From: Escherichia coli
GTDB taxonomy: Bacteria > Pseudomonadota > Gammaproteobacteria > Enterobacterales > Enterobacteriaceae
Reading direction: 5' to 3' (one strand)
Assembly (NCBI RefSeq): GCF_002854065.1
Contig: NZ_CP024147.1
DNA: 64,000 bases
A program made the translations under genes and the position numbers. Position 1 is the first letter of the stretch; every line of letters starts with the position of its first letter. The notes under the pieces are model-generated. The model had not been told where the DNA came from. It did not search any database and saw only the letters and a program-made list of their open reading frames with translations. Of the stretch, positions 41,882-52,128 are shown piece by piece.

Positions 41882-42171
41882 ATAAATCTCCATTTATCAT
41901 TTATGTCGTAAATATGTAATCCATGCAAAATACGTCATTTAAAGCTGGTGTTATCATAATTGGGAAATTGCGACTTTAATAAGTGGAAGTGTGAGCAGAA
42001 CGATCCATTTTATTAGGCATTTGTGCTGAAGAGGGAAAATTACGGCATATTTATTACTATCATCAATAATGTGACCTGACTTATATTTTTATTATTTATA
42101 TTACTTTCAGCTTTCACTTCGACAAGAAGTACGCACAATGATTAATTAGATGAATGATGCGGAGTGTAACC

Positions 42172-42879
42172 ATGAAACCCGTCGTGCTGGTGGTGGATGA
42201 TGACACGGCTATCTGCGCACTGTTGCAGGACGTGTTAAGTGAACATGTCTTTACGGTTTCAGTCTGCCATACCGGACAGGAGGCCATATTGCGTATTGAG
42301 GGCGATCCTGACATTGCGCTGGTGGTGCTGGATATGATGCTACCCGATACCAACGGCCTGAGGGTATTGCAGCAAATCCAGAAACTGCGTCCGACATTGC
42401 CGGTGGTGATGTTGACCGGCATGGGCAGTGAGTCTGATGTGGTGGTCGGGCTGGAAATGGGCGCGGATGATTACATCTGCAAACCGTTCACCCCGCGGGT
42501 GGTGGTCGCACGACTGAAAGCGGTGTTGCGACGGGTTGGTGCGCTGGCGGTTAATGACGAGAAAAGCGCCGGGCTGTCATTCAATGGCTGGTATCTCGAT
42601 ACCATGCGCTGCCAGTTGCACAATCCGCTTCAGCAACATGTCGAGTTAACTCAGGGCGAATATGGCTTGTTACTGGCTCTGGCGCAAAACGCGCGTCGGG
42701 TATTGAGCCGCGAGCAGTTGCTGGCGTTCACCCACAGCGACAGCGTGGAGGTGTTTGATCGCACCATCGACGTATTAATCATGCGCTTACGACGCAAAAT
42801 CGAACTCAACCCGCATCAGCCGATGTTGATTAAAACTCTGCGCGGTCTGGGGTATGTCTTCGCTGCCGACGTGCATTAA
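42172..42879 (+). CDS. OmpR/PhoB-family response regulator (REC + winged helix)
   Basis: MKPVVLVVDDD...VVLDMMLPDTNG receiver motifs; C-terminal wHTH (LTQGEYGLLLAL...LRGLGYVF); GGAG 7 nt upstream of ATG. Confidence 0.85.
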   Translation: MKPVVLVVDDDTAICALLQDVLSEHVFTVSVCHTGQEAILRIEGDPDIALVVLDMMLPDTNGLRVLQQIQKLRPTLPVVMLTGMGSESDVVVGLEMGADDYICKPFTPRVVVARLKAVLRRVGALAVNDEKSAGLSFNGWYLDTMRCQLHNPLQQHVELTQGEYGLLLALAQNARRVLSREQLLAFTHSDSVEVFDRTIDVLIMRLRRKIELNPHQPMLIKTLRGLGYVFAADVH

Positions 42880-43877
42880 TCCGACATTTCTGTTTGCAGC
42901 TCTTCCAGCGTTTTCGCCCCGTCGATGGCATTGGCGCATAACAGGCTTGCCCGCGCGCAGGCGTGTGCCAGTTTGATGCTCTCGGTAAGCGTCCAGCGTT
43001 CATGGCAGCCATATAAAAATCCGGCACAAAATGCATCGCCCGCGCCGACGCTGCCGATAATTTCCCGTTGTTCTAACTTTTGCGAAGGGATCCACACGCC
43101 GCCCTGTTCTGGGGTCTCTCCCCACGCCCCTTCCGGGCAGTGGATCACCACCCGCTGGCGCACGCCCGCATCTAACAGTTCACGCGCGGCGGCAGCAATA
43201 TGCGCGATATGCGGTTCGCCGTTGGGTAACCGAATTTCCAGCCCGCTAAACTCCCCGGCCTCCAGTTCGTTAATTACCAGATAATCCAGATGGCGCAACG
43301 CGGGCAGCACCAGCGGCTGATAACGCGGATCGCCCTTACGGGAGACCAGGTCGAGTGAGGTTTCAAAGCCAGTATCACGCATTTGCGCCAGCAGGCGTGC
43401 GCTACGGGTGCCGTAAACATCGTCCGGCATATCCAGGCTGTCGAGCAACAGTAAATAGCCGAGATGGAAAATCTTCATGGTGTTATCGAGCTGATCGAAC
43501 GCCGGAAGATCCAAAAGTCTGTTTGCACCCGGCGAATGGAAAAACGTCCGCTGCCCGCTTGGGTCTGTCATCACCTGCGACATCGACGTCGGGGCAAAGG
43601 TAGTGCGCTGCACATGCTGACGATTGACGTGATATTGCTCAAGCATCGCCATGATGTAATCGCCGTCGCTGTCCTGACCGATTAGCCCAACCGCCTGTAA
43701 CGGTAGCCCGGTGCGCATTTTCGCCAGCGTCAGCAGGACGTTAAGCGGCGCACCGCCGGTGGAGCGTTCGCTGTGGGTGATCTCCGCCAGCCAGCCGCGC
43801 TCTGGCCACTGGATAATCTGATGGACGTGGTCAACCAACATATTGCCTGCGGCGATAATCCCTTTACGCTCCATCAT
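42876..43877 (-). CDS. PfkB-family carbohydrate kinase
   Basis: 333 aa; N-terminal GG motif (GGAPLNV) and PfkB signature VGAGDAFCAGFL. Confidence 0.82.
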   Translation of the reverse strand: MMERKGIIAAGNMLVDHVHQIIQWPERGWLAEITHSERSTGGAPLNVLLTLAKMRTGLPLQAVGLIGQDSDGDYIMAMLEQYHVNRQHVQRTTFAPTSMSQVMTDPSGQRTFFHSPGANRLLDLPAFDQLDNTMKIFHLGYLLLLDSLDMPDDVYGTRSARLLAQMRDTGFETSLDLVSRKGDPRYQPLVLPALRHLDYLVINELEAGEFSGLEIRLPNGEPHIAHIAAAARELLDAGVRQRVVIHCPEGAWGETPEQGGVWIPSQKLEQREIIGSVGAGDAFCAGFLYGCHERWTLTESIKLAHACARASLLCANAIDGAKTLEELQTEMSD

Positions 43878-44734
43878 GCCTGCCCCGCACTGCCAAAAAT
43901 ACGCATCTGTTGTGCAACCGTATCGCTGATGGCGGCTTCCACTGCCAGCAGTAACTCGGCAAACTCGTCATACATCGGCTGACGGTGCGCCATTCGGGCC
44001 TCAACGGCAGCCAGCGCCGCTTGCGACATGCCAGTGTAGAAATTGATTTTGTGGATACCCAGTTCGATGGCGCGGCGGAAATCGGCATCACTAATCCCTG
44101 AGCCGCCGTGTAATACCAGCGGGATAGCAGCCTGCTGGCGGATAGCGTCGAGGCGCGGGAAATCGAGTTTCGGTTCGCCGCGATATTTGCCGTGTGCATT
44201 GCCAATCGCCACGGCCAACGCGTCAATGCCGGTACGGTCGACAAAATCACGCGCCAGTTGCGGATCGGTAAACAGGGATTCATCGGCATGACCATAGAGC
44301 GCACCGCCTTCGTCGCCACCCACCGCGCCCAGTTCAGCTTCTACCGATACGCCAACGGCATGGCACATTTTCACCACTTCCCGCGTCTGGCGGACATTTT
44401 CTTCATACCCCAGCGTGGAGCCATCAAACATTACCGAGCTGAATCCCAGCCGCAACGCTTGCACCACCGATTCAAAATGCAGTCCGTGATCGAGATTTAA
44501 CACCACCGGAATGGCATGACGCGCCGCTTCAAATTTCACTGTCTCGACCAGGGAATCCAGCGAGATATATTTAAAATGTACTTCGGCAATGTTGATAATA
44601 AAGGGCGAACGTTCTTGTCTGGCAGCAGCAAACAAGGCGCGTAAAAAGTGCGAGTCCAGCACATTAAACGCACCTAACGAATAGTGATGTTCGCGGGCAT
44701 GTGCCAGCCCTTCAGCGAGAGAAATCAATGGCAT
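43874..44734 (-). CDS. class II (zinc) ketose-bisphosphate aldolase, FbaA/GatY/KbaY family
   Basis: 286 aa; MPLISLAEGLAHAREHHYSLGAFNV, LNLDHG and LVLHGGSGI motifs. Confidence 0.82.
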   Translation of the reverse strand: MPLISLAEGLAHAREHHYSLGAFNVLDSHFLRALFAAARQERSPFIINIAEVHFKYISLDSLVETVKFEAARHAIPVVLNLDHGLHFESVVQALRLGFSSVMFDGSTLGYEENVRQTREVVKMCHAVGVSVEAELGAVGGDEGGALYGHADESLFTDPQLARDFVDRTGIDALAVAIGNAHGKYRGEPKLDFPRLDAIRQQAAIPLVLHGGSGISDADFRRAIELGIHKINFYTGMSQAALAAVEARMAHRQPMYDEFAELLLAVEAAISDTVAQQMRIFGSAGQA

Positions 44735-51315: not shown

Positions 51316-51397
51316 TTTTCAGAATTTATCAAGAGGCCTGAAGCAAATGTGCTGCTATTGTGAGCAATTCTGTTCTGAATGGGATATAAAAGGAATT

Positions 51398-52060
51398 ATG
51401 CCAGTACTGACAAGAGGCGATTCACATATGATCGTGATGCCCACCACCTATAGCCCTATGACGGTTGCTCGTTCTTTTCGCGTGGTGGAAGAGATCGAGC
51501 TTTCTGGACGTCTGTTACAGGTAATTTATGACAAGCAGACGCCAAGAGCGGCCATCATTGAAGCGGACATTGAAGTTTTTGCAGGCGTGCCACGTCATAG
51601 GGTACATGCCGCTCTCGATCTGCAGCGTAAAAAAGAGTTCGGCAGCGATATCATTGCCGTTGAACGCTGGTGGGAAGACTCGGATCTGGTACAGGTAGAA
51701 GGTATTTGTGTCTCTCCTGGTGAGCGCGATAAGGGGCTGGCAACTCGGCTGTATGAAGCGCTAATCCTGCAATGCGGTATCACGCTAATCAGCGATTTTG
51801 ATCAATATGATGGTGGGAAGATGCTCTGGCAGAAGATCGCGCGCGAGTCCGATCAGATTTCAGTGTTTGTATTAGACACTGAACAAGGGGCATTTTGGCC
51901 TTATGATGGCACGAAAGTGATCTACGATGGCGGTTGCATTCCGGAAGAGCGTATCTGGAGTATTTCACCGGATCAAAAATGTCATGGCATTGTGCTGGTG
52001 GCGGAAAATAAACAGCGAGCTAACCAGCTAATGGAAGAGTCTGCGCCTTACCGAGTTTGA
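51398..52060 (+). CDS. hypothetical protein, possibly GNAT-like (start uncertain)
   Basis: ORF frame 51275..52060; ATG candidates at 51347, 51398, 51428; weak GNAT motif-A-like segment VSPGERDKGLATRLYEALI; no other recognisable motif. Confidence 0.5.
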   Translation: MPVLTRGDSHMIVMPTTYSPMTVARSFRVVEEIELSGRLLQVIYDKQTPRAAIIEADIEVFAGVPRHRVHAALDLQRKKEFGSDIIAVERWWEDSDLVQVEGICVSPGERDKGLATRLYEALILQCGITLISDFDQYDGGKMLWQKIARESDQISVFVLDTEQGAFWPYDGTKVIYDGGCIPEERIWSISPDQKCHGIVLVAENKQRANQLMEESAPYRV

Positions 52061-52128
52061 GATTACTCCGCTACTCCGGTCATTCACACTCAACTAACGT
52101 TAAGCCAGTCCATCGCAGAGACTGGCTT

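Follow-up and report, generated by a model that had tools for sequence, protein, structure and literature searches.

A long variant of the OI-167 island, with the lmu sugar operon and the LmvK/LmvR two-component system, in the yjcS–yjdP interval of an Escherichia coli genome

The kinase and regulator genes Z5692 and Z5684 of the genomic island OI-167, carried by Escherichia coli O157:H7 EDL933, have been characterised under two sets of names. Liu et al. (2022; PMC9860305) described the two proteins as RbfS and RbfR, and reported that riboflavin increases rbfS and rbfR transcripts and the autophosphorylation of RbfS in vitro, that RbfS directly phosphorylates RbfR in vitro, and that ler is activated by RbfR. 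The designation lmvR-lmuKAIZYX-lmvK for the entire island comes from Yang et al. (2023; PMC10128022), who also observed that it is flanked by yjcS and yjdP, substituting for the allose locus. In their work, lmuXYZIAK forms a single operon with a mapped transcription start, and its induction by mannose or lyxose depends on both lmvK and lmvR; lmuI and lmuZYX are required for growth on lyxose, whereas lmuK and lmuA are not. A fructokinase activity is reported for LmuK in the same study, which also ties LmvR to activation of the locus of enterocyte effacement (LEE) and to colonisation, the latter being impaired by deletion of lmvK or lmvR but not by deletion of lmuKAIZYX, lmuZ included. A 2024 review merged the names RbfSR and LmvKR (PMC11644481), and all three publications call the system confined to serotypes O157:H7, O145:H28, and O55:H7. 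Here, we describe what is very probably a long variant of this island in a 64-kb window of E. coli contig NZ_CP024147.1 (the whole stretch of DNA that was analysed, with its strand read 5' to 3' and all coordinates referring to it).

The block between yjcS and yjdP can be identified with high confidence as OI-167, made up of lmvR (rbfR), lmuX-lmuY-lmuZ-lmuI-lmuA-lmuK, and lmvK (rbfS), standing as an alternative to the als-rpiB cassette and having a published mechanism. Its assignment to the published system follows from the agreement in gene order, protein identities, operator, and phosphorylation sites. The yjcS–yjdP site, the order and orientation of the eight genes, the promoter region, and the operator are all as in O157:H7 EDL933, and the encoded proteins are 95–100% identical. 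The locus is already known, since the island, its regulator, its operator, its inducers, and its isomerase have each been described in print.

The limits of the island were set by blastn against a K-12-type locus (L003), with which homology (97.9%) stops at 42102 and restarts at 52123, leaving an insert of 10,020 bp (42103–52122). An initial annotation, made from the sequence alone, had given the block an extent of 41882–52128; the block is there, but its true limits lie slightly inside these coordinates. The left junction (42102/42103) falls 69 bp upstream of the lmvR start codon and is preceded by intergenic DNA shared with K-12 (41894–42102) and by the alkyl sulfatase gene yjcS (39896–41893, minus strand), a conserved left flank seen in the list of open reading frames (ORFs) and in the annotation of CUWW06, K-12-type, and O157-type genomes. 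The conserved right flank is yjdP (52129–52458, plus strand), which scores 150 bits against a cut-off of 90 with NCBIfam model NF041443. In the K-12-type genome, the same interval holds alsK-alsE-alsC-alsA-alsB-alsR-rpiB in place of the island, as the initial annotation had stated, and not the genes seen here. The nearest genome to the window is that of E. coli CUWW06, a 4.65-Mb wastewater isolate, with 99.96% identity over 18 kb (six substitutions and one indel); its annotation gives a gene list equal to that of the window. The nine genes proposed for the interval are all present in the order and on the strands originally claimed, according to the ORF list, family searches, and the CUWW06 annotation, and the divergent intergenic region at 48938–49050 had been delimited exactly.

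No signature of a mobile element accompanies the island, as judged by an integrase or transposase, a tRNA target, flanking repeats, and deviant GC content: no integrase or insertion sequence is among the island genes annotated in CUWW06, a search for tRNA genes at the island found none, a search for flanking repeats returned short matches at chance level only, and the GC content of 0.52–0.59 is similar to that of the flanks. At Rfam gathering thresholds, neither a flavin mononucleotide (FMN) riboswitch nor any other riboswitch or small RNA was detected within the island. Scans for consensus promoters and terminators gave counts at or below shuffled expectation and were not used.

The first gene of the island, lmvR/rbfR (Z5684; 42172–42879, plus strand), encodes an OmpR/PhoB-family response regulator that is identical to the O157-type protein at all 235 positions and retains Asp54; its top NCBIfam matches are OmpR, VirG, and PhoB, each under its equivalog cut-off. 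The remaining genes up to the divergent promoter lie on the minus strand and form a tightly packed operon of six lmu genes. Its last member, lmuK (42876–43877), shares its 3'-terminal 4 bp with the 3' end of lmvR. It encodes a divergent PfkB-family sugar kinase that agrees with the O157-type protein at 332 of 333 residues and resembles named kinase families and solved structures only weakly. The lmuA product (43874–44734) belongs to the class II ketose-bisphosphate aldolase family and is identical to its O157-type counterpart at 285 of 286 positions; it scores 578 bits, above the cut-off of 406, with NF005284, the NCBIfam "ketose 1,6-bisphosphate aldolase" model, and its structural relatives include fructose-bisphosphate, tagatose-bisphosphate, and YdjI aldolases.

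Upstream of lmuA, lmuI (Z5688, EcSI; 44749–45432) encodes the cupin D-lyxose/D-mannose isomerase, with 439 bits against a cut-off of 350 for NF051472 and 216 of 227 residues identical to the O157-type protein. The initial annotation had pointed to such an isomerase from an equivalent O157 cluster, and the product indeed matches Protein Data Bank entries 3KMH and 3MPB at E = 8.9e-154. We take this structure of Z5688 to be that of van Staalduinen et al. (2010, J Mol Biol). The three transporter genes follow. The periplasmic, RbsB-like sugar-binding protein LmuZ (45487–46428) is identical to the O157-type protein throughout its 313 residues. It is about 90% identical to a solved structure, 4RWE, deposited as a "sugar-binding transport protein" and presumably from Yersinia pestis. 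The ATP-binding cassette (ABC) transporter permease LmuY (46447–47421) is RbsC/AlsC-like, scoring under the equivalog cut-offs, and shares 320 of 324 residues (98.8%) with its O157-type counterpart. The ABC transporter ATPase LmuX (47418–48937), with two nucleotide-binding domains, is encoded by a gene that the ORF list and the alignment to CUWW06 reveal to be frameshifted, a lesion that the initial annotation had missed.

On the plus strand beyond the divergent promoter, lmvK/rbfS (Z5692; 49051–51315) encodes a hybrid histidine kinase, recognised by its Pfam domains and identical to the O157-type protein at 743 of 757 aligned positions (98%). It is followed by a GNAT-like ORF of 210 codons (51428–52060, plus strand) that is annotated in CUWW06, where the NCBI Prokaryotic Genome Annotation Pipeline calls it "N-acetyltransferase"; its product has a weak Pfam GNAT match (E = 0.0017) and no match in an NCBIfam search. 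The phosphorylation sites are all present, namely His407 and Asp689 in LmvK and Asp54 in LmvR, with the LmvK numbering offset by 3 from that of EDL933 owing to an indel described below. A plus-strand ORF of 427 codons antisense to yjcS (39890–41173) is almost certainly a non-coding shadow ORF, like the other long ORFs that lie on the plus strand within the minus-strand lmu genes.

The 113-bp divergent lmuX/lmvK promoter region (48938–49050) is 100% identical to that of O157-type genomes. A pattern search of the window found within it a perfect direct repeat upstream of lmuX, ATATGA-CAA-ATATGA, on the minus strand at 49010–49024. This operator, ATATGACAAATATGA as read on the lmuX strand, is the sole match in the 64 kb at up to one mismatch, with 0.09 matches expected by chance. 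The published LmvR footprint at the lmuX promoter covers -41 to -62 and contains ATATGA-N3-ATATGA (PMC10128022), and the operator of the window corresponds to it. An operator with at most two mismatches also stands upstream of the transporter in 29 of the 32 loci examined from other genera. A search for the LmvR box upstream of lmvR gave AT-rich matches with three mismatches only. Within the island, the 21-bp sequence footprinted by RbfR at the ler promoter (TCTCACATAATTTATATCATT) has a single match, which with seven mismatches is not meaningful.

According to the model published for the O157 copy, LmuXYZ imports an aldose, which LmuI converts to the ketose (D-lyxose to D-xylulose, or D-mannose to D-fructose); LmuK then phosphorylates the ketose, and LmuA provides the presumed cleavage step. 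The hybrid kinase LmvK is activated by mannose or lyxose (Yang et al. 2023) or by riboflavin (Liu et al. 2022). Phosphorylated LmvR binds ATATGA-N3-ATATGA immediately upstream of the -35 box of lmuX, activates the operon, and autoregulates lmvR. From the sequence comparison, we infer that the window copy works alike at the regulatory level, because its regulator, operator, kinase phosphorylation sites, and enzymes are intact and 95–100% identical. The original claim that a sugar ABC importer and its enzymes are placed here under two-component control is supported by the published induction data (PMC10128022), the operator, and the gene families.

With the D-allose locus alsRBACEK-rpiB of K-12, the island shares the chromosomal interval and the general design of a rare-sugar cassette combining an ABC importer with enzymes. 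The two differ in control, which falls to an RpiR-family repressor in als and to a two-component system in lmu, and in their enzymes. The island proteins are not close orthologues of the Als proteins: identity is 30% between LmuZ and AlsB, 38% between LmuY and AlsC, and 40% between LmuX and AlsA, the remaining island proteins match no Als protein, and scores with the NCBIfam Als models are far under the cut-offs. The published lmu scheme also follows the logic of the L-fucose and L-rhamnose pathways, from aldose to ketose to ketose phosphate to cleavage, but with enzymes of unrelated families (a cupin isomerase, a PfkB kinase, and an FbaA-type aldolase).

Against this close likeness, the window copy departs from the O157 form in several respects. 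A segment of 823 bp (51304–52126), comprising the GNAT-like gene and the last lmvK codons, is missing from O157-type genomes; among complete E. coli genomes, of which 5426 were searched, it is whole in five, and about half of it is kept in 29 more, mostly named O145. The GNAT-like gene also stands beside lmvK in 10 of 80 loci fetched from other species, including some Citrobacter, Leclercia, Enterobacter, and Lelliottia. Because the gene follows lmvK in other species too, the long form of the island is probably the ancestral one. The O157-type LmvK (L002, 11171–13441) carries three extra residues, NDF, near residue 220 of the periplasmic domain, together with nearby substitutions; the triplet is absent from the LmvK of the window and of all other genera examined. 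The published experiments used the NDF-inserted form of the kinase. The closest genome to the window, at 4.65 Mb, is moreover not O157-sized.

The most divergent gene of the island is lmuI, whose DNA is only 94.3% identical to the O157 allele, giving 11 substitutions in the protein, mostly between residues 134 and 204. Since its neighbours lmvR, lmuK, and lmuA are far more alike to O157 (99.5–99.8%), lmuI looks as though it carries a recombination patch. Across the island as a whole, identity to O157 is 98.3%, equal to that of the flanking core genes (98.1–98.4%), a value that would fit long residence of the island in the species rather than a recent import.

The most consequential difference concerns lmuX, which is shortened by a 1-bp deletion at about 47691, where GGG has become GG, visible as one gap in the alignment to CUWW06. 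The six-gene lmu operon is hence not intact in the window, the other five genes being undamaged. The LmuX translation diverges near residue 416 and ends at residue 440 of 506 (stop codon at 47618–47620), so that the truncated protein loses the Walker B motif and the later motifs of the second nucleotide-binding domain. We lean, with modest confidence, towards a real frameshift, that is, a private inactivating mutation, because the comparison with CUWW06 gives six substitutions but only one indel over 18 kb. This ratio is unlike that of an indel-rich, unpolished long-read assembly, and runs as short as three bases are only weakly prone to error. A sequencing or assembly error, with a fully intact island in the strain itself, would still be a substantial possibility, if somewhat short of an even chance: only one base of a short G run is affected, the closest relative CUWW06 carries an intact lmuX of 506 codons, and the deletion is found in none of the 410 complete E. 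coli genomes that bear the island. A 201-base query over the deletion spans 202 bases in all 12 of the genomes listed and finds a 100% match in no genome. If the frameshift is real, then the importer would be dead, with sensor pair and enzymes still intact, and the pathway would be unusable for uptake in this strain.

The second question on which readings of the island divide is how LmvK perceives its signal. The kinase consists of a first transmembrane segment, a helical periplasmic domain of about 250 residues, a second transmembrane segment, HAMP, HisKA (His407), and HATPase domains, and a receiver (Asp689) at which the protein ends. Pfam finds only HAMP, HisKA, HATPase_c, and Response_reg; it detects no C-terminal histidine phosphotransfer (HPt) domain after the receiver and gives no match for the periplasmic domain. 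A profile of 20 sensor domains likewise retrieved nothing from all Protein Data Bank sequences, even at E ≤ 10. An AlphaFold model of LmvK residues 1–310, built on 20 orthologues, is all-helical with a pLDDT of 83, and its best structural neighbours are the sensor domains of TorS, free and with TorT, followed by PilJ and McpS. The target-normalised TM-score is 0.70 for the TorS–TorT complex 3i9y, and the root mean square deviation is 3.4 over 272 columns for 3o1j. The model thus suggests a TorS-like sensor at the level of the fold, with marginal Foldseek E-values (about 1e-3) and no sequence match. The fold does not decide the mode of sensing, because TorS senses via a binding protein whereas McpS binds its ligand directly. 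We lean slightly towards direct perception of the sugar by LmvK through this TorS/McpS-like helical domain.

The alternative is indirect sensing, in which sugar-loaded LmuZ would dock onto the periplasmic domain of LmvK, so that one receptor would serve importer and sensor alike, as in the TorT/TorS and ChvE/VirA pairs; LuxQ–LuxP is a further example of a sensor kinase that depends on a binding protein. We consider this a tentative possibility, rather less likely than direct binding. The trimethylamine N-oxide system TorS/TorT/TorR resembles the island in the predicted double helical-bundle fold of its periplasmic sensor, in its OmpR-family regulator, and in an RbsB-class periplasmic binding protein encoded nearby, and TorS–TorT complexes (3i9y and 3o1j) are among the top matches of the LmvK model. 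VirA/ChvE/VirG of Agrobacterium offers a second parallel, with a hybrid kinase ending in a receiver and lacking HPt, and with sugar sensing linked to the binding protein of an ABC transporter; the LmvK core matches a VirA-like model at E = 1.9e-64, and VirG is the second-best family match of LmvR (E = 6.5e-53). LmuZ is itself a binding protein of the RbsB/TorT class, and the transporter adjoins lmvK in nearly every locus with enough upstream DNA, including the enzyme-less loci of the Raoultella type. Both parallels have limits. LmvK lacks an HPt domain and any sequence similarity to the TorS sensor, scoring 138 bits with the TorS equivalog against a cut-off of 676; LmuZ belongs to an ABC importer, and its putative tie to LmvK is seen here as co-location. 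The island proteins also score well under the VirA and VirG equivalog cut-offs, and LmvK lacks the phenolic-sensing linker region of VirA. The helical bimodular fold is shared by McpS, which binds its ligand directly (2yfa, with malate bound), and by PilJ. The absence of a colonisation defect after deletion of lmuKAIZYX argues against an obligate dependence on LmuZ, and the riboflavin response of purified RbfS needs no binding protein (PMC9860305).

A broader form of the same idea, in which LmvK-LmvR-LmuXYZ would be an old, Enterobacterales-wide module, not one acquired by enterohaemorrhagic strains, that reads the sugar occupancy of LmuZ, with the LEE and riboflavin responses as late co-options in O157, we hold to be doubtful as a whole.

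It is also unlikely, in our view, that riboflavin is what the kinase responds to physiologically, with induction of the lmu operon by sugar being indirect. The RbfSR study speaks for riboflavin, with its raised transcripts, increased RbfS autophosphorylation, and direct transfer to RbfR in vitro (PMC9860305). The genomic setting points the other way: dozens of genera have the module fixed beside genes for a sugar transporter and for sugar enzymes, the operator precedes the transporter gene, and the island contains no flavin gene detectable by family searches, in addition to lacking an FMN riboswitch. Induction of the operon by mannose or lyxose is, moreover, itself lmvK- and lmvR-dependent (PMC10128022), and the PAS domain found in Kosakonia and other orthologues is missing from the E. 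coli kinase.

Several points weigh against the account favoured here. The two primary studies disagree on the signal, riboflavin in PMC9860305 and mannose or lyxose in PMC10128022, and on the position of the LmvR/RbfR site in the ler promoter. One of them invokes an unknown HPt protein while the other shows direct phosphotransfer in vitro, and LmvK has a receiver but no HPt domain according to Pfam. Both lmuK and lmuA are dispensable on lyxose, and lmvK is dispensable for the induction of the LEE by mannose in vitro (PMC10128022); this dispensability leaves what LmuK and LmuA do, and how the kinase connects to the regulator, incompletely established. The published experiments concern the EDL933 copy, the window copy being known by its sequence, and the frameshift in lmuX means that the pathway may be non-functional in the strain of the window. 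That the cluster might nevertheless be strain-specific and uncharacterised, with substrate, pathway, and signalling all obscure, as the initial annotation had held, can be dismissed as very improbable: the LmuK product, the LmuA substrate, and the mode of ligand recognition are so far presumptive in biochemical terms, but two primary papers and a review (PMC9860305, PMC10128022, and PMC11644481) give the inducers, operator, operon structure, and mutant phenotypes of an island to whose proteins those of the window are 95–100% identical, LmuI has a solved structure, and 410 complete E. coli genomes carry the island. The anatomy and location proposed in that annotation stand, but its claim of novelty was out of date in view of PMC9860305 and PMC10128022.

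Across the 5426 complete E. coli genomes, the yjcS–yjdP interval holds the als cassette in about 3400, the island in 410, and neither in about 1600. In the one genome of the last group that was inspected (strain 165, L084), a deletion has left only a truncated rpiB. The junction lacking the GNAT-like gene is found in 375 of the 410 island genomes, and for 347 the identity to the O157 junction query is at least 99%. The 29 genomes that keep about half of the GNAT-bearing segment, mostly named O145, also belong to the 410. The remaining carriers, by our estimate a few dozen, are other isolates with genomes of 4.5–5.1 Mb, one named ETEC6335; their sources are pig, cattle, goat, poultry, pigeon, otter, water, vegetables, sewage, and humans. 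The module appears not to be restricted to enterohaemorrhagic E. coli (EHEC), the label "non-EHEC" resting here on genome size in Mb and on isolation source. The published restriction of rbfSR/lmvKR to O157:H7, O145:H28, and O55:H7 does not hold. The description "strain-specific" in the initial annotation is apt insofar as only 410 of the 5426 genomes have the island, but it does not survive the existence of hundreds of carriers and the wide occurrence of the module in other Enterobacterales.

A collection with one genome per species yielded 154 stretches with a confirmed LmvK relative, from which the 80 loci mentioned above (L004–L083) were fetched. All seven partner genes are present in the same order and orientation in 51 of these, and the six-gene operon is present in nine more. 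The transporter alone, with or without the regulator, accompanies the kinase in about 11, from Raoultella, Phytobacter massiliensis, and some Citrobacter and Enterobacter. Reduced modules of regulator, transporter, and kinase, with no isomerase, aldolase, or sugar kinase, occur in L051, L053, L054, and L056–L058 (mainly Raoultella) and in L025 and L037. The genera represented include Citrobacter (for example L006), Enterobacter (E. hormaechei, L020), Leclercia, Lelliottia, Kosakonia (L048), Phytobacter, Buttiauxella, Atlantibacter, Franconibacter, Pseudescherichia, Serratia (S. plymuthica, L080), and also Raoultella; protein-database matches add Klebsiella pneumoniae and Salmonella enterica. 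LmuZ is 89–100% identical in 70 of the 71 other loci in which it was detected (52% in L043) and is far more conserved than the kinase (61–82% in other genera) or the regulator (66–80%). The LmvK of Kosakonia (L048, 10001–12556) and other long orthologues, which are about 100 residues longer, contain a PAS_7 domain between HAMP and HisKA. Such long forms occur in Kosakonia, Raoultella, Buttiauxella, Serratia, and Pantoea, and the PAS_7 domain is absent in E. coli, Citrobacter, and Enterobacter. In Citrobacter koseri NCTC10786 (L044, 717–2929), the lmvK orthologue is frameshifted in its sensor domain and is likely a pseudogene.

Elsewhere in the window, outside the island, Rfam matches at gathering level comprise the small RNA sraL (12178–12318), the fdhF selenocysteine insertion element (34187–34241), and two naRNA4 elements of the repetitive extragenic palindromic type (31648–31718 and 61451–61531).

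Given that many genera of Enterobacterales conserve the entire module together with its operator, the ancestral role of LmvK/LmvR appears to be control of the sugar operon, and control of the LEE in O157 a later co-option. The apparently TorS-like fold and the near-invariable pairing with a binding protein supply an idea that can be tested, both on how the signal is sensed and on the dispute between mannose and riboflavin. If the lmuX frameshift is real, then a broken importer beside an intact sensor pair would provide a natural test of whether signalling needs transport. The wider distribution of the module, in E. coli and beyond, changes both its evolutionary story and the published argument that its spread constitutes a public-health risk.

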